From: Promethearchaeota archaeon
GTDB lineage: Archaea > Asgardarchaeota > Lokiarchaeia > Sigyniarchaeales > SOKP01
NCBI GenBank assembly: GCA_030599585.1
Contig: JAUVNS010000028.1
Span: 1 to 39,207, forward strand
Direction of reading: 5' to 3'
DNA length: 39,207 nucleotides
Shown piece by piece: positions 30,532 to 37,227 of this stretch. The position numbers and the translations under genes are program-made. The first letter of the stretch is position 1, and each line of letters opens with the position of its first letter. The notes beneath the pieces were generated by a model, which was not told where the DNA came from, searched no databases, and was given only the letters and a program-made list of their open reading frames with translations.

Positions 30532-31335
30532 CTAATTGAAAATCTCCAAAATTTCCCAGATACCATTGATTATAAAATCAGGTTTTTCTGATTTGTTTTT
30601 ATTAATCATTTCTAAAGTTGTCTCTCCAGAAAGCACGCAACACGTTGTAACTCCAGCGTTTATTCCCATTTTTATGTCAGTATACAATCTATCACCAAAC
30701 ATTACTGCATCTTGAGGTTTTACTTCGATTTCGCTGAGTTTAAACAAGAGCATTTCTTTGTTTGGCTTTCCAAAAACAAGTGGCATTCGTTCCGTCGTTT
30801 TATATAAGAGGGCGGCGATACCTCCAGCATCAGGTATAAATCCATCCTCTGTAGGACATTTATCGTCTAAATGAGTGGCAATATACGGAAGCCCTTTTTG
30901 GAGCAAATATGATGCTTTTGCTAACCGATTATAGGTCAATTCTTGATCAAAAGCGAGAACTATAATTTCGGGATTACTTTCGCTTAAAGCGAACCCTTCC
31001 TCAATAAACTCTTCTTTAAGAGACTTATTTCCAAGTAAAAAAACAGTAGTGTAGTTATTTTTCTTTAGATAACTAATAGTAGGATGTTGAGAAAGTATTA
31101 AATTTTCACGGGTTGCATTCAAGGATAACTTATTTAATTTTTTAAGGTAATCAGAGGTTGATTTACTTGAATTGTTTGAAAGAAAAAAATAATGCTTTCC
31201 TTGTTCTTTAAGAGCTTTAATTGTTTCGATTACTCCTTCAAAAAGTTCATTTCCTAAATAAAGAGTCCCATCCAAATCAAAGAAGAATACTTTTTTTCTT
31301 CTTAATTCAGCGATATTTTTACTTATGGAGCTCAT
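30532..31335 (-). CDS. HAD-superfamily subfamily IIA hydrolase (NagD-like)
   Basis: FDLDGTLY, SNNSS, GKP, GDRLYTDI, VLSGET. Confidence 0.93.
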   Translation of the reverse strand: MSSISKNIAELRRKKVFFFDLDGTLYLGNELFEGVIETIKALKEQGKHYFFLSNNSSKSTSDYLKKLNKLSLNATRENLILSQHPTISYLKKNNYTTVFLLGNKSLKEEFIEEGFALSESNPEIIVLAFDQELTYNRLAKASYLLQKGLPYIATHLDDKCPTEDGFIPDAGGIAALLYKTTERMPLVFGKPNKEMLLFKLSEIEVKPQDAVMFGDRLYTDIKMGINAGVTTCCVLSGETTLEMINKNKSEKPDFIINGIWEILEIFN

Positions 31336-31418: not shown

Positions 31419-32105
31419 CTAAATCCGATAAGGAACTGTGCTTATTTTCTCTTCGCTTAATTTTAGCCAAGCTTTGTATTTAAAAGTATATTTACCCTTA
31501 ACTAATGGGTTATAGCCAGTTTCTTCTTCAAATAGAATTCGTTTTATCTCGGAATCTATTTGTTTACACCTCTTAATAGTGTGTCTCCTAGCACCTATTA
31601 TGCCAAGGATTATTATAGAAACAACTACAATCAAAATTATTAGAATTGTCTGCGTTAAGTTTGCGTACATGTTAATAAAAACAAACATTATAATGATTGG
31701 AATAACACTAAAATAACAATAGAGAAAGTAGTAGCTACGATCACCAATAAAAAATTGTGTTTTTACTATGTCCTGATTATTTTCGGTTATAGTAAGTATT
31801 AACCATTTACGATAACCGGTTGTAAACTTACTATTTCTAGATGCTTCTAAACCAAGTTCTTCGTAATACTTCTTTTGCTTTAACATTGTATCTGAAATGA
31901 TACAAATCTTTTTTTCTTTAAATTCTAAATAGAGAAATAAGGAGAAAACAAAGCTAATAAAAAAAATTAGATATATAACTGGAGGAATAACAAAACGATC
32001 CTCAAACATCACCATTACGAACCAAAAGATGAGTGTAATACAGATATAAGAGAAAAAATTTTTTAGTTTTGATTTAAAGTATAATCTTAAAAATAATCTA
32101 AGCAT
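31419..32105 (-). CDS. Hypothetical membrane protein (two TM hairpins)
   Basis: 228-aa ORF filling the intergenic gap, four hydrophobic segments, no recognisable family. Confidence 0.65.
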   Translation of the reverse strand: MLRLFLRLYFKSKLKNFFSYICITLIFWFVMVMFEDRFVIPPVIYLIFFISFVFSLFLYLEFKEKKICIISDTMLKQKKYYEELGLEASRNSKFTTGYRKWLILTITENNQDIVKTQFFIGDRSYYFLYCYFSVIPIIIMFVFINMYANLTQTILIILIVVVSIIILGIIGARRHTIKRCKQIDSEIKRILFEEETGYNPLVKGKYTFKYKAWLKLSEEKISTVPYRI

Positions 32106-32224
32106 TTTTTCCTATTTATTTTTCATATTGTTATTTTAAAGTAAGGAAAAAAAAGTAAAAATTTAAGATTTTTGGTTTTGGATCAAGATTTGGTTTTTTG
32201 ACTGCACTAAGATTTAGATTGTTA

Positions 32225-33703
32225 TTATGATTTTGCTCCTTCTATTTCTGTTCCGCACCATTTACAAAATTTATCGTCTTGTGTTAATTTACTTCGGCAA
32301 AATGAACAGGTTTTCGATTTTTTCGGAGTTATTATTGTTGATTCCTTAGTGCTCCTACCGTCAACTTTACCTCCACAGCTGGGGCAAAAGTGAGCGTCGG
32401 GTCTGAGTGAATTTCCGCAACGAATGCAGTTAGTATCTAATTTACTAGGTTTTTTTATAGCTGATTTACTAGGTTTTTTTATTGCTGATTTTGCGGGGGC
32501 TGCTTTTGACGATTTTTTTGGTTTTAATTTCTTCTGTCCTCTTCTGGCAAGTAGAGCAGCAACAATTACGATTCCAATAACCACTATAATAGTAATTAAT
32601 ATTGGACTAAGATCCATCCACCTATCAGTAGAACTAATTCCTGTATCGTAAGTCACATCAAAAGTAATAGTCGTGGTTTCTTCTGGAGATAGCATTGGAT
32701 CAAAAAAAACGAAGAAATACCACAGTCCATCATTCGGAACAGCAAAGTCATTTTCAAGGATTGAATCAACGCCTTCAATATAGAAATCAGTGACTGATAA
32801 GTCAATCACATCTTCAGCAGAGTAATCAAGTGTGAAATTGACCACGGCTGTAGACACTCCTTCGTTAAACCAAACAATGTAATAATCCTTCGCTGATAAC
32901 ACATTATATAATCCAGTATCTGATAATACATCATTTTTATCAACATCAAAAGAGGGACTAAAACCTTGATTCCAATCGTAAAATTCTTGACCGTCCGCTA
33001 TAAAAAAGTCAATTTGGCTTGATGCGTTAAAATCGTAGTTAATTGTTGATCCTGGTTTTAAATAATATTGTACATATTCATATTGGTTGTTTATAAGACT
33101 AAGCTGATCAGAATCACTTCCAACTTTCGAAGTAGTAGGTAAAGATTCAAAAGGGCGATCCCATATAGCAAAGCTTATTAAGCTCGGTGATGATTGTATG
33201 GAATATGTTATATCATTTCCAGCATTCATATCTTCATATTCGTACCAATATTCGTTAAAGTATAGGGTTTCCGTTGAGCGATAATTCACAGTACCATTTG
33301 CATCAGCATTGCTAAAAGGAAACCACATCGCTACTCCAAAAAGAGGCAATAGTATTAATCCTAGAACAATTGCTATCGTTACACCACCTCCAACATAGAC
33401 AGGTGAATAGTACCAAGGTCTATACCATCGTCCAGCCCAATATGGGTGATACCACCAGCGCATATACCATGGTCGATACCCATACCAGTAGTGTCTCCTG
33501 CGGGGTCTATAGTAAGAGTGACGGTACGGTCCGCTAGGTGATCTTGAGGTTACTCGTCTTGCCCCAGTTCTTCCAAAAGGTGTTCCTGAAGATCTTGAAC
33601 CTCCCATTCGAAATGCTGCTGAGCCTCCACGAAATCCTCCTCCTCGAAATCCACCACCACTAAAACCTCCGCCTCTAAAACCACCGCCACCACCACGAGG
33701 CAC
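32225..33703 (-). CDS. Two-TM membrane protein: N-terminal FRGG repeats and Arg/aromatic region, beta-sandwich ectodomain, C-terminal double zinc ribbon (GTG start)
   Basis: GTG at 33703 with GAGGTG (33720-33715) upstream; GGFRGG repeats; two TM helices; CIRC..CPSC and CSFC..CKWC zinc ribbons. Confidence 0.88.
   Translation of the reverse strand: MPRGGGGGFRGGGFSGGGFRGGGFRGGSAAFRMGGSRSSGTPFGRTGARRVTSRSPSGPYRHSYYRPRRRHYWYGYRPWYMRWWYHPYWAGRWYRPWYYSPVYVGGGVTIAIVLGLILLPLFGVAMWFPFSNADANGTVNYRSTETLYFNEYWYEYEDMNAGNDITYSIQSSPSLISFAIWDRPFESLPTTSKVGSDSDQLSLINNQYEYVQYYLKPGSTINYDFNASSQIDFFIADGQEFYDWNQGFSPSFDVDKNDVLSDTGLYNVLSAKDYYIVWFNEGVSTAVVNFTLDYSAEDVIDLSVTDFYIEGVDSILENDFAVPNDGLWYFFVFFDPMLSPEETTTITFDVTYDTGISSTDRWMDLSPILITIIVVIGIVIVAALLARRGQKKLKPKKSSKAAPAKSAIKKPSKSAIKKPSKLDTNCIRCGNSLRPDAHFCPSCGGKVDGRSTKESTIITPKKSKTCSFCRSKLTQDDKFCKWCGTEIEGAKS
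32440..32491. repeat. 24-bp tandem duplication encoding KSAIKKPS x2
   Basis: atttactaggtttttttatagctg followed by atttactaggtttttttattgctg (1 mismatch). Confidence 0.92.
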
Positions 33704-33705
33704 TT

Positions 33706-34713
33706 TTATCTTGGCACCTCATTTGTAGGTTCTTTTTGACGAAAGAAATAATCCCTATAAATTGCTGCTAGCACTAAAATCATCGATATTATTGAAAATG
33801 TCAATCCCACACCGTCAACGGTTATATTCGGAGTTGGAACGGCGATCGCAAATGCGACACCAAATAGAATCCAGTTAATAATTAAAAACACAACAAATAA
33901 AATAGGTAATAAAAATTGTACCAAAAATCCAGTTTCAATGTTGCGAACTTTAGAATAACTCGAGAATATTATTGAAAAAAGTGCAAGGATACCAAAAATA
34001 ACTACCAGAACACTAATAATAACAATTATTAACCAAATTATTCCGTTTGTATTAATTAGATTCACGAATGGAAATAGGAAATTAATGCCCCTTGCTTCAA
34101 ACAATCCAAAAAGGACAACTTCACCTTCAATTCCGGCCATCCCGAAAAAACTAAGCAAACCAGCGGGATTTCCTGAAAAGAAACCAAATATTCCAACAAG
34201 CGGGAAAATTACACCTAGAACAAATGCAATAATTGTACAACAAGTTGCGAACCAAAATTCCGCGGATCTGGTATTAGACACAGAAATTAAGCCTACATCG
34301 TCGAAATCTTCGTCAGGAATAAAACTCCAGCAATCTTGTATAGTGCAAACTCCAACCAACTTCCCATTTTCTACTACTGGTACGACATTGACGTTTAAAT
34401 CTCGCATTCTCGCAAAAGCTTCAGTCACAGGATCATCGAGAGAGACAGATTTAATCTTATACATTGTTGAAATTACTTTTTCAACTTTTGGATCGCTTCC
34501 TTTCGCTACAACGTTTTGAACTATATCAAAATCTGCTATAACTCCGAGAACTTTCTCAGATTTTTCAACTACAACTAAATCTGGCACTCCTAACTCTTTC
34601 ATTTTTTTTGCTGCATCTTGAATAGTCGCATTAGAATCGATTACACCGTATTCATCGTCAATAACCAAATCCTTAATAAAATATTCTTTTTTAGATAAGG
34701 CCATATTCATCAT
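33706..34713 (-). CDS. CBS-pair (Bateman) domain fused to a four-TM domain
   Basis: ATIQDAAKKM..LVVV..VLGVI..FDI and V.EAF..M..VPVVENGKLVGV.T..D, followed by four hydrophobic helices. Confidence 0.88.
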   Translation of the reverse strand: MMNMALSKKEYFIKDLVIDDEYGVIDSNATIQDAAKKMKELGVPDLVVVEKSEKVLGVIADFDIVQNVVAKGSDPKVEKVISTMYKIKSVSLDDPVTEAFARMRDLNVNVVPVVENGKLVGVCTIQDCWSFIPDEDFDDVGLISVSNTRSAEFWFATCCTIIAFVLGVIFPLVGIFGFFSGNPAGLLSFFGMAGIEGEVVLFGLFEARGINFLFPFVNLINTNGIIWLIIVIISVLVVIFGILALFSIIFSSYSKVRNIETGFLVQFLLPILFVVFLIINWILFGVAFAIAVPTPNITVDGVGLTFSIISMILVLAAIYRDYFFRQKEPTNEVPR

Positions 34714-34873
34714 TTTTTTAAATTAGATTTGTTATTTATAAAACAGATAAAACTAGCTATTAAAGGTAACTATAGTCCAATTATTAATTCTTCTCGTAAA
34801 ACTAAAAATTCTCTAAAGGAAATACATAAGAACTTTGATAAGATATAAGATTAAAAAAAAAGAGTAGCTTGAA

Positions 34874-35332
34874 TTAAAAAAATTCAGTCCCTTCTATTTT
34901 AGTGGTTGAAACGACTAGTTCCTGCGCAGCCTTCGTTGCTCGCATGACCTTTGCCATGTTACCCACGAGTTTAAATTTACCGGCCATTAATCCTTGGATA
35001 GGATCGAGTTCTTGTTTCAAAACCTTTACCCAATTATCGTATGTTCCTGAAAATACAAATTCTGCGCCGATTTTTTCTCCTTCTTTTAAAGGTCGTGGCT
35101 CAGAATTAGGGGGTAAAATTTCGTATTCTTCACTTTCCTTTAGGACTTTACTGCCTGTGCAGTCTCCTTTAAATAATCCAATAAACATTGTAATTTTATG
35201 ATCCAGATTGCCACTCGGTTCAATCTCGAATATGAAATCACCTGTCCACCAAGAAGCTGCCGCTTTATAATTGGCATTTTCGTTTAAAGCTTTAGTATAG
35301 GCTTCTGCCCATTCATTTGAAAATACTTTCAT
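34874..35332 (-). CDS. SCP2 sterol/lipid-binding domain protein
   Basis: FS.EW...LN.N..Y..AA..W, F..SG.Y.NW, LDPIQGLMAGKFKLVGNM. Confidence 0.88.
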   Translation of the reverse strand: MKVFSNEWAEAYTKALNENANYKAAASWWTGDFIFEIEPSGNLDHKITMFIGLFKGDCTGSKVLKESEEYEILPPNSEPRPLKEGEKIGAEFVFSGTYDNWVKVLKQELDPIQGLMAGKFKLVGNMAKVMRATKAAQELVVSTTKIEGTEFF

Positions 35333-35485: not shown

Positions 35486-36640
35486 TTACACTCCTACGCC
35501 AATGGTATTTCCTATACCAGCAACTATAATCTTTGCTCCTTTCTTAGTACGCTTCCGAATCCCCATTTTAATATTTTCTACAATAGGATGTACGCTTTTG
35601 GTAATTGGTCGCGACATTGTGGTTATTGCATTTTCTAAAGATTGTCTACAGATAACAGCGTCAATTGGAATAGCTTTTTTGCTTGAAGATTCCTCGATAT
35701 AAAACTTTTCAACTCCAATTCCTCCAATAGCAGCACCTACTCCGATTGCAATTGACCCCGTTTTATCGCCAGAAAATTTAAGACCAGCATCGATCATTAT
35801 TATCCGAGATATGGAATCTCCATGTTCTTCAATTAGTTTTTTAATTGCGGTGCCTGGTTTTCCTACAGTTCCTCCAGGGCCCTTAGCTCGCACGACATAT
35901 ATTGTTCTATCTTCAAAGGTAACCTTTTGGTAGATAGTATCTTTTGCGATTTCAATAGCTTCAATGTCTTCGCTATTTGAGACGTCTCTTACAAAACTTC
36001 CGGCAACTAAAGGTCCAAGAGCGTCTCCAATTGGACTACCTTCAGAAAATGATTTTGTAGCGTGGAAGTACGATTTACCCATTGCTAAAATCATAGTCAT
36101 CTGCATGGAAATCTGCATTAGGATAATGTAGGATTTAGATTTCTTTCCTAGTATTAAGAAATGTTTGACTAAACGATAAACGTAATCAACGGCCATAGCA
36201 GCTTCAAGAACATTTTCTAAATTCTGAGCTTCTTTAGTTCCGGGCTCAACATTTGGGGCTAAACCTGCTATTTCATCTTTGAATCTTTCATCCCTTACAT
36301 CCATTATGTGGTCAAGTTTTGGGACTATACCATAAGGATCAAGGTCAACTGGTCTAATGGCTATGAAAGTCAAGAAATTTTCAATTTTAAGCATCAAATC
36401 TTTATCTGTTTCATTTTTGTCAGCGTATTTTCTAAAATTCGAAAGCAAAATCTGTTTGCACTCGTCATCCCATTTTTTGAGTTTTTCCAAACCAGATTCG
36501 ATCTCTCTTGCCGAGCGCCACGCCTGGAGTTTGGTACCATAAAACATTGAAACAAATATTAGACCAAACCATAACAAATTAAAAATTAATCCGAGAGGGT
36601 CTGTTTCCGTTTGGCCAAGCTGCATTATTTGTACAATCAT
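35486..36640 (-). CDS. DUF1512 family archaeal membrane-anchored protein
   Basis: N-terminal TM, P.DLDPYGIV.KL.H, PIGDALGPLVA, AKGPGGTVG.PG, IDAGLK..G..TG, G.G.AIGGIG.EK, GIGNTIGV. Confidence 0.85.
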   Translation of the reverse strand: MIVQIMQLGQTETDPLGLIFNLLWFGLIFVSMFYGTKLQAWRSAREIESGLEKLKKWDDECKQILLSNFRKYADKNETDKDLMLKIENFLTFIAIRPVDLDPYGIVPKLDHIMDVRDERFKDEIAGLAPNVEPGTKEAQNLENVLEAAMAVDYVYRLVKHFLILGKKSKSYIILMQISMQMTMILAMGKSYFHATKSFSEGSPIGDALGPLVAGSFVRDVSNSEDIEAIEIAKDTIYQKVTFEDRTIYVVRAKGPGGTVGKPGTAIKKLIEEHGDSISRIIMIDAGLKFSGDKTGSIAIGVGAAIGGIGVEKFYIEESSSKKAIPIDAVICRQSLENAITTMSRPITKSVHPIVENIKMGIRKRTKKGAKIIVAGIGNTIGVGV

Positions 36641-36789
36641 TTTTAGCTTTTCTCTGTTTTAAATATTATATATAATTGAAATATTAAATCTATTAAGTTT
36701 TCATAATAACAAAATTTAATTAATCTTATATTCTTTTCTATTATAGAGTAAAGTTTACAAGATATCAGTAAAAATATGGAAAGATACTC

Positions 36790-37227
36790 ATGATAGACGA
36801 AGAAGACGATGAAGATATTTTAAATAAAAAGCGTTCTTTGAAGAGCATTCTTAAAAACCTTTTGTTGGTTTTACTTATTGGTATAGGAGTTCTTTTTATG
36901 TATATCGGAGGCGTTGATCAAGTTTTCAATATGGTTATAGGTTTCACTTTCATATGTTTAGGGACCACATTATTCCAAATGGGAAAAAATCCCAGTGACC
37001 CAATAAGACAGACTTTAACCATATTAAAATGTAAATCTTGCAGTGCGATTAAAGTAAGGAATTATGAGATTGGGGATTTCATTTTCAAGTCTATGGGATC
37101 ATGCGATAAATGTAATAATTCTATGGAAATAGATCAGATTTATAGCGTCAAACTTAAGAAATCCCGGAAAAAAGACGATAAGCTGGAAAAAAGCAAAAAG
37201 AAGTTACTGGAAACAATAGAAGTTTAA
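36790..37227 (+). CDS. Archaeal-type two-TM protein with C-terminal Zn-ribbon (CxxC...CxxC)
   Basis: Two TM helices, then TILKCKSC...R.Y..GDFIFK..G.CDKC...M.I..IY. Confidence 0.8.
   Translation: MIDEEDDEDILNKKRSLKSILKNLLLVLLIGIGVLFMYIGGVDQVFNMVIGFTFICLGTTLFQMGKNPSDPIRQTLTILKCKSCSAIKVRNYEIGDFIFKSMGSCDKCNNSMEIDQIYSVKLKKSRKKDDKLEKSKKKLLETIEV

Follow-up and report, generated by a model that had tools for sequence, protein, structure and literature searches.

A conserved gene pair of Lokiarchaeia encoding a CBS-tetraspan protein and an RGG-tailed, zinc-ribbon membrane protein with an APD/GOLD-type ectodomain

The stretch analyzed here, referred to as the window, comprises 39,207 nucleotides of a Promethearchaeota archaeon (GenBank assembly GCA_030599585.1, contig JAUVNS010000028.1, positions 1 to 39,207). 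Two adjacent genes on its reverse strand encode membrane proteins. Gene 1 codes for a pair of CBS motifs followed by four transmembrane (TM) helices, and gene 2 for a protein with an RGG-type N-terminal tail, a large ectodomain between two TM helices and two C-terminal zinc ribbons. An earlier annotation made from the letters of the sequence alone, termed the original prediction below, had described both open reading frames (ORFs), a gap of 2 nucleotides between them, a GTG start codon for gene 2 and a GAGGTG motif inside the upstream gene. All of these were found as described. The features of the pair are as follows.

33706..34713, minus strand: gene 1, CBS-pair and tetraspan membrane protein (ORF of 335 residues, ATG start)
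34315..34686, minus strand: Bateman module of gene 1, two CBS motifs, residues 10-133, predicted cytoplasmic (Foldseek, VIA, model)
33754..34272, minus strand: tetraspan domain of gene 1, residues 148-320, with a first outer loop of ~50 residues that carries a conserved LFEARG motif and beta strands (model, hydropathy)
32225..33703, minus strand: gene 2, RGG tail, TM helix, APD/GOLD-like ectodomain, TM helix and double zinc ribbon (ORF of 492 residues, GTG start)
33392..33703, minus strand: N-tail of gene 2, residues 1-104, predicted cytoplasmic, with MPRGGG-(FRGGG)n, PFGRTG and an Arg/Tyr/Trp/Pro-rich juxtamembrane stretch (composition, alignment)
32630..33322, minus strand: ectodomain of gene 2, two nested beta sandwiches, residues 128-358 (AlphaFold2, structure and profile searches)
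32804..33127, minus strand: inner GOLD-type domain, residues ~193-300, with an APD1-4_N match at residues 196-239 (VIA, Pfam)
32240..32434, minus strand: two zinc ribbons of gene 2 (CxxC-x10-CxxC, twice), residues 424-488, predicted cytoplasmic (DZR match, invariant Cys)
33715..33720, minus strand: GAGGTG Shine-Dalgarno-like motif of gene 2, within Glu-Val codons of gene 1 (sequence reading)
34733..34743, minus strand: TATA-like box TTTATAAATA, candidate archaeal promoter of a two-gene operon (sequence inference)
32147..32161, minus strand: T5 and T8 runs, a putative archaeal terminator-like operon end 64-78 nucleotides past the gene 2 stop (sequence inference)

At the junction of the two genes, the GAGGTG motif (33720-33715) is followed by 6 nucleotides, the TAA stop codon of gene 1 (33708-33706), the dinucleotide AA and the GTG codon (33703-33701), which places the start of gene 2 two nucleotides past the stop of gene 1. 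This junction was compared among 26 loci from three families of the same order and one family of another class. All 26 harbor a purine-rich Shine-Dalgarno-like motif (GAGGTG, GGAGG or GAGGGG) 8-12 nucleotides ahead of the gene 2 start and within the last codons of gene 1, while the spacing between stop and start varies from roughly -4 (an ATGA-type overlap) to about +11 nucleotides. The start itself is marked by M/V/L-PRGGG, the conserved N-terminus of every full-length gene 2 homologue. A dipeptide 'EV' near the C-terminus of gene 1 (33709-33720), encoded by GAG GTG, is conserved in the family alignment, probably because these codons form the Shine-Dalgarno-like motif of gene 2 rather than because of a function in the protein. 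The TTTATAAATA box lies ~25 nucleotides ahead of the gene 1 ATG and predicts a near-leaderless transcript. Together with an upstream GGACTATAGTTA block it is kept in most loci of the same genus, most clearly in loci L001-L009. A T9 run behind the upstream SCP2 gene would divide the two transcription units. Promoter box, junction design and T runs thus predict a two-gene transcript with translational coupling, and the two genes most likely form a translationally coupled operon of Lokiarchaeia and one further Asgard class. The co-expression design proposed in the original prediction is supported by the occurrence of the same junction type in every locus compared, which exceeds what chance would produce.

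The linkage of the two genes was surveyed in 301 genomes drawn from the phylum, with thresholds of E≤1e-12 for gene 2 and E≤1e-25 for gene 1. The genes were adjacent and co-oriented, with gene 1 upstream, in 74 of 76 pairs. In the remaining two (genomes G220 and G238) each gene is located at the very end of its contig, probably because assemblies break at the repeated Gly codons in the 5'-terminal part of gene 2. Synteny across Asgard genomes, on which the original prediction depended, is therefore conserved except at assembly breaks. Each gene was present in 77 genomes; 75 contained both and 222 neither. The other four are discordant, each with fragments truncated at contig ends; apart from these, neither gene was found without the other at the thresholds used. 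Since the two genes lie side by side, their joint absence from draft genomes carries little weight, and at least one apparent absence (G021) was a contig end; joint absence was thus set aside as an indication of co-loss. The pair occurs in three families of the same order and, in another class, in 19-20 of the 21 genomes sampled from one family. The proteins of this other class are 40-47% identical to those of the window, and the pair is still adjacent, at 40-45% identity, in all five genomes checked. Nine loci from other genera, other families and the other class retain only the pair out of the genes of the window, save one weak HAD match. At E≤1e-3, 469 homologues of gene 1 and 272 of gene 2 were retrieved, among them metagenomic sequences of both. 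Those named by their source derive from metagenome-assembled genomes of Promethearchaeota or Lokiarchaeota and carry generic names, such as 'CBS domain-containing protein' for gene 1; some sources label homologues of gene 2 as L37E, L40E or RPABC4. No fusion of the two genes was detected in a Pfam scan of 20 relatives, either longer ones or variants, a set that did not come from a search aimed at longer proteins. Based on this conservation, the two proteins almost certainly work together.

Gene 2 shows the architecture that had been described for it, namely an RGG/aromatic tail, a TM helix, an ectodomain of ~230 residues, a second TM helix, a Lys-rich linker and two zinc ribbons, as confirmed by composition and by a match to the DZR family (PF12773; 37.7 bits against a cut-off of 27.3, E = 2.3e-9). 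The N-tail (residues 1-104) contains 19 Lys and Arg, no Asp or Glu, 24 Gly and 26 Trp, Tyr or Phe residues. Pro2, Arg3, Gly4 and Gly5, the stretch Pro42-Phe43-Gly44-Arg45-Thr46-Gly47 and many Trp, Tyr, Arg and Pro positions are invariant or at least 90% conserved. Hydrophobic segments span residues ~105-127 and 361-383, corresponding to helices 100-127 and 358-391 of the structural model. The ectodomain between them (residues 128-358, 231 residues) harbors 38 acidic but only 6 basic residues, whereas the C-tail contains 28 Lys and Arg, with the Lys-rich linker (residues 384-423) ahead of the ribbons. As the tails are basic and the middle domain is acidic, the positive-inside rule places both tails in the cytoplasm and the middle domain outside. 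All eight ribbon cysteines (Cys426, Cys429, Cys440, Cys443, Cys466, Cys469, Cys480 and Cys483) are invariant in the alignment, as are Gly449 and Arg450 between the ribbons.

The ectodomain was predicted by AlphaFold2 to be all-beta with a predicted local distance difference test score (pLDDT) of 83-96 (about 90). In a comparison with VIA its inner domain superposed on the GOLD domain of p24beta1 (5azw_B; Z 12.2, root-mean-square deviation (rmsd) 1.5, 87 of 93 residues). Further GOLD entries followed, with TMED1, p24gamma2 and SPF among four at Z 10.3-11.5 and ACBD3 at Z 7.6, and Foldseek matched the inner domain to GOLD with a probability of 1.0. The outer sandwich resembles PliG (Z 11.7, 111 residues). 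A shape search of the ESM Atlas returned, after the protein's own cluster, clusters annotated as E3 ubiquitin-protein ligase APD2 or APD1-4 from plants and molluscs, in alignments of ~215 residues that spanned both TM helices. The Pfam family APD1-4_N (PF16040) matches the window protein at residues 196-239 with 25.6 bits, just below the cut-off of 27, and 20 of 36 family members with a best E of 8e-7; no match to the window protein was obtained for APD1-4_M (PF16041) or EMP24_GP25L (PF01105). Searching 1.84 billion representatives with a profile of the ectodomain retrieved an APD_N+APD_M protein of the amoebozoan Pellita catalonica (P0289, E = 6e-9), a plant-type APD protein (P0301, E = 1e-7, with Pfam APD_N at 1e-48 and APD_M at 2e-40) and members from the stramenopile Chrysoparadoxa australica and the mussel Dreissena polymorpha. 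The retrieved eukaryotic proteins pass the Pfam cut-offs for APD1-4_N and/or APD1-4_M, and P0289 and P0301 pass both. The same profile also retrieved a true EMP24/GOLD (p24) protein at E = 4e-4. A search for further eukaryotic relatives that started from the Pellita protein returned that protein alone. Alignment with hhalign to seven APD-domain proteins gave a probability of 98.6%, E = 1.4e-15 and 28% identity over 127 columns. The homology of the ectodomain to the lumenal domains of eukaryotic APD1-4 proteins is thus well supported. The external domain of ~230 residues proposed in the original prediction was recovered, but its GOLD-type fold and its homology to APD1-4 had been missed there. 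Within the phylum the full nested domain is restricted to lineages that carry the pair. Other families show weaker matches that cover the inner domain alone; in one of them, 29 of 76 genomes have such a match. Close copies of the nested ectodomain are also found in two proteins of different composition. P0241 (L035, 1485-3443) carries a WD40 beta-propeller that separates the ectodomain from a C-terminal TM helix and P0242 (L036, 114-2741) an N-terminal block of TPR repeats; both are devoid of an RGG tail, zinc ribbons and a CBS neighbor.

Arabidopsis APD1-4 are described as transmembrane RING E3 ligases (Luo et al. 2012, as cited in PMC6118397). Gene 2 shares with them a homologous domain at the profile level, a matching predicted shape and the order of parts: a cytoplasmic N-tail, a TM helix, a beta-rich non-cytoplasmic domain of ~230 residues, a second TM helix and a cytoplasmic Cys-rich tail. 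Two differences are apparent. APD1-4 possess a cross-braced RING, whereas gene 2 has two independent zinc ribbons in its place, and gene 2 is accompanied by an FRGG/aromatic tail and a CBS-tetraspan partner gene, a partner not reported for eukaryotic APD1-4. The absence of the RING finger that defines the APD ligase family proper leaves the membership of gene 2 unsupported. Orthologues of the other class (loci L018, L019 and L025) possess, within their last ~60 residues, a third Cys/His finger (C-x6-H ... CxxC-x4-CxxC-x11-CxxC) to which zf-RING_4 and Prok-RING_4 match weakly (E ~2e-3). This finger is a RING-like extension, located where the RING is found in plant APD proteins. Eukaryotic APD-domain proteins that lack a RING (P0289, P0359 and P0382, the last from Dreissena polymorpha) contain PPxY-like motifs in Pro/Tyr-rich tails, and PPxY motifs recruit Nedd4-type ligases. 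The homology to APD and GOLD domains therefore shifts the likely effector function of gene 2 from RNA binding to protein recruitment. The start of P0289, MPRHGGG followed by a Gly/His/Arg-rich tail, is similar to the archaeal MPRGGG-FRGG, which is a low-complexity resemblance and a lead only; P0289 and P0359 both begin with MPR- or MPV-GGG and Gly/His-rich tails.

The p24/TMED proteins (PF01105; 5azw, 7rrm, 5gu5) provide a second comparison. Besides the superposition of the inner domain on GOLD, they follow the same logic of a non-cytoplasmic ligand-binding sandwich combined with a short cytoplasmic recruiting tail. Gene 2 differs from them in the insertion of the GOLD-type domain into a second sandwich, in its two flanking TM helices and zinc ribbons, and in the absence of a coiled coil and of a COPI/COPII tail motif.

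The description of gene 1 as a CBS pair with four TM helices is also substantiated. Pfam assigns CBS (PF00571) to two stretches with 59.8 bits against a cut-off of 24 (E = 3.2e-16), and no other Pfam family reached its threshold; NCBIfam yielded only generic CBS matches far below the cut-offs. The AlphaFold2 model (mean pLDDT 80) consists of the Bateman module, a disordered linker and four long helices at residues 148-173, 226-256, 263-290 and 301-318. The first outer loop of the model contains beta strands, the second has a single strand, and the inner loops are short. In fold searches with the whole protein (Foldseek, VIA) the lists were filled by CBS pairs. The Bateman module aligned to 1xkf_A in VIA with Z 16.0 and an rmsd of 2.1 over 119 of 120 residues, and to many CBS pairs in Foldseek with a probability of 1.0. 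The motif G-h-h-S/T-x-x-D, which we take to be the ribose/phosphate-binding motif of CBS pairs, is fitted by the second CBS motif (G121-V-C-T-I-Q-D127), where Gly121, Val122, Ile125 and Asp127 are invariant in the family alignment. The first motif (G57-V-I-A-D-F-D63) contains an alanine at the S/T position and is invariant or nearly so. The CBS pair is canonical and would be expected, judging from these residues, to bind an adenosine-type ligand. CBS pairs normally dimerize. A cytoplasmic Bateman module attached to a membrane part and a conserved ribose-binding motif are likewise found in MgtE, CNNM/CorC, ClC and OpuA/OpuC, and the CBS fold of gene 1 matches modules of CBS-regulated membrane proteins (MgtE, CorB and OpuCA among them) at Z 11-14. 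Gene 1 differs from these transport systems in its four-helix domain with a structured outer loop and in a partner that is receptor-like rather than a transport component.

The tetraspan domain could be assigned to no known family. Pfam recognized no membrane family in the whole protein and gave only scattered chance-level matches for the membrane part of 28 members, its profile found no match among PDB sequences at E≤10, no match to the membrane domains of MgtE, DUF21/CNNM, ClC or other transporters was detected, and in the language-model atlas scores were only 0.81-0.82. Among its invariant residues Gly, Pro and Trp prevail, and the others are Leu, Ser and Ala. The single conserved polar position (Asn, Glu or Gln) is located in the third TM helix beside the invariant Trp281. 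A packing or scaffold domain therefore fits this composition better than a pore. The modeled arrangement of four helices and a long first outer loop containing beta strands is compatible with Claudin/PMP22 tetraspans, whose fold is a four-helix bundle with a five-stranded outer sheet; this resemblance is one of layout only, and no sequence match to them was found. For the pair as a whole, no named system of this composition was found in Pfam, NCBIfam or PADLOC, and searches of the literature on Asgard RING or transmembrane E3 proteins, GOLD domains and RGG tails revealed no description of the family or of the pair, in line with the original prediction.

An independent, rearranged form of the module was found on a 10-kb metagenomic contig. 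It encodes a distant relative (P0293) in which a tail rich in Arg and Tyr is followed by a single APD_N-type domain between two TM helices and then by a zinc ribbon. Behind the P0293 gene come a gene for a CBS pair only (147 residues) and, after it, a gene for a mini protein of 156 residues. The 147-residue protein is 35% identical to the CBS part of gene 1 (E = 3e-14) and shares the motifs DxxIxDxY, GxPD and DxDIV with it. In the mini protein, the MQRGGGFRGGG tail is joined by a stretch of aromatic and Arg residues, a single TM helix and a zinc ribbon; no similarity between this protein and the tetraspan domain of gene 1 could be detected. The persistence of the CBS pair beside membrane proteins with RGG tails and zinc ribbons, in a new order and without the tetraspan domain, hints that it may act on the cytoplasmic tails. 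Another uncultured lineage harbors tandem arrays of two to four distant APD-like/zinc-ribbon membrane paralogues (L031, 3356-9685; L038, 1726-5809; L039, 2001-4944) with neither an RGG tail nor a CBS gene nearby.

These results can be reconciled, tentatively and at somewhat less than an even chance, in an undescribed two-subunit heteromeric receptor or adaptor that combines APD/GOLD-like sensing with a CBS-tetraspan regulatory subunit. The domain architectures, the charge-based topology, the operon design, the linkage and the homology of the ectodomain are direct results; we infer that the two proteins associate physically, that the CBS pair binds a ligand and which kind of partner the cytoplasmic tails recruit. 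Subunit B, encoded by gene 2, would expose its nested GOLD/APD-type beta sandwich at the cell surface and bind an external or surface ligand there, while its basic FRGG/aromatic tail and double zinc ribbon would form a cytoplasmic docking platform. Most likely this platform would recruit protein partners for the modification or sorting of membrane proteins and would not itself be an enzyme. Such recruitment is suggested by analogy, because the eukaryotic relatives carry RING or PPxY-like tails at the same position and one archaeal clade a RING-like finger. Subunit A, encoded by gene 1, would sit beside subunit B in the membrane by means of its tetraspan domain, and its CBS pair would read an adenosine-type ligand of the adenosine mono-, di- or triphosphate (AMP, ADP or ATP) or S-adenosylmethionine (SAM) class. 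Reading this ligand would tie the output of subunit B to the energy or metabolic state of the cell.

Several observations weigh against this receptor/adaptor. Contact between the two proteins is putative; a complex prediction with alignments for full-length gene 1 and residues 100-400 of gene 2 gave a score of 0.03 against a mark of 0.32, which speaks neither for nor against binding. In the AlphaFold2 model, N-tail strands at residues 19-24 (FRGGGF) and 43-46 (PFGRTG; pLDDT ~60-78) are set against the outer sandwich, and this modeled placement contradicts the topology derived from charge. The zinc ribbons do not form a RING: they lie ~20 residues apart, and zf-C3HC4_3 matches gene 2 with only E = 0.049 and 13.9 bits against a cut-off of 27. 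The conserved neighborhood of the pair contains no gene of a ubiquitin system. The tetraspan domain, which belongs to no recognizable family, may serve a separate purpose, for instance as a pore. Finally, the CBS neighbor is absent in five of six more distant relatives checked, so that the CBS link is specific to one subfamily. Four of these five (L031, L033, L038 and L039) also lack the RGG tail, and the fifth (P0305, L037) retains a Gly-rich/aromatic tail.

Other functions were considered for the same architecture. In eukaryotic proteins, RNA is bound by FRGG repeats and by tracts of Arg and aromatic residues. In line with one of the effector functions named in the original prediction, the pair could alternatively represent a membrane-tethered RNA-binding or condensate scaffold, whose tail and zinc ribbons bind RNA or ribosomes under modulation by the CBS subunit. 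The strong conservation of the tail and its lack of acidic residues are consistent with this function, as are the abundance of such ribbons in ribosomal and transcription proteins, the labels given to gene 2 homologues and a match of the CBS module to a chain of the Methanosarcina 70S ribosome complex (9zni, Z 12.1). However, those labels are assigned automatically to any CxxC ribbon, the locus comparison revealed no RNA-related gene that stays beside the pair, and the eukaryotic relatives of the same architecture have protein-directed RING or PPxY-type tails. An RNA scaffold is thus considered unlikely.

CBS pairs fused to membrane domains are typically regulators of transport. The tetraspan domain of gene 1 might accordingly oligomerize into a nucleotide-gated pore or carrier, as in MgtE, CNNM/CorC or ClC, with gene 2 as an auxiliary surface subunit. 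The CBS modules of MgtE, CorB and OpuCA among the structural matches and the polar residue by Trp281 agree with such a channel or transporter. Yet no transporter membrane domain was matched, the four helices contain no conserved charged or polar residue beyond this single position, gene 2 seems too large and its tails too well conserved for a mere accessory, and the distant variant has a CBS pair without a tetraspan domain. This makes a CBS-gated channel quite improbable. That the genes are co-transcribed but functionally independent, their tight spacing reflecting genome compaction, is hardly credible: short intergenic gaps are common in archaea and no interface was obtained, but order, orientation and coupling are kept at ~40% identity across classes while the other neighbors are replaced, and even the rearranged, split version keeps the CBS part by APD-like and RGG/zinc-ribbon genes.

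Beyond the two-subunit receptor or adaptor itself, the pair could be an Asgard forerunner of the eukaryotic APD/GOLD-type family of membrane ubiquitin ligases and sorting adaptors, gated by an adenine-nucleotide-sensing CBS-tetraspan subunit that was lost or replaced in eukaryotes. This extension is rather unlikely; if true, it would mean that an archaeon controls the turnover or sorting of its membrane proteins according to energy state. Precursors of the eukaryotic membrane-trafficking and ubiquitin machinery are being sought in Asgard archaea, and gene 2 is a widely conserved Lokiarchaeial protein with a GOLD-type fold in an outer domain homologous to that of a eukaryotic endomembrane ubiquitin-ligase family, and in this protein the whole layout of tail, TM helix, domain, TM helix and tail is kept. 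We know of no established mechanism for the APD family, even in plants. The obligate archaeal partner gene, which encodes a putative nucleotide sensor, offers an experimental handle on this type of protein and could show whether energy sensing joined the module before eukaryotes arose. Should the two proteins not interact, the finding would be a new Asgard member of the APD/GOLD superfamily beside an unclassified CBS membrane protein.

The genes around the pair were compared in the same loci. One of them had been suggested as a possible third member of the module:

31419..32105, minus strand: orphan gene with four TM helices, a genus-level neighbor (own TATA-like box at 32131-32140; locus comparison)

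This gene follows the pair in 10 of 11 other loci of the same genus (L012 lacks it there) and is absent from all nine loci compared outside the genus, which represent other genera, other families and the second class. Its divergence is much faster, with only 40-46% identity retained in loci where gene 2 is still 72-75% identical. Its TATA-like box sits behind the T5 and T8 runs, and a weak match to DUF2207_C was its only family assignment. The suggestion of a third member was therefore abandoned. An SCP2-fold gene upstream (34874-35332) and a gene for a HAD-family phosphatase downstream (30532-31335) flank the pair in nearly all loci of the same genus, but not in other families. Further upstream, a gene for a DUF1512 protein (35486-37227) with both Pfam halves (E = 1e-43 and 1e-57) is transcribed divergently from a gene for a two-TM protein with a CxxC...CxxC motif. 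The four-TM, SCP2, HAD and DUF1512 genes were rejected as members of the module, as they are conserved within the genus only or not at all.

Elsewhere in the same genome (G000, contig C20), a zinc-ribbon paralogue of 195 residues was rejected as a relative of the module, having no TM helix, RGG tail or CBS neighbor. The same contig encodes a protein of 323 residues with an N-terminal small-GTPase-like P-loop region (GQWGVGKTS ... DIGGQ ... NKSD; L041, 4979-5950), located near a soluble paralogue that combines a beta domain with a double zinc ribbon.

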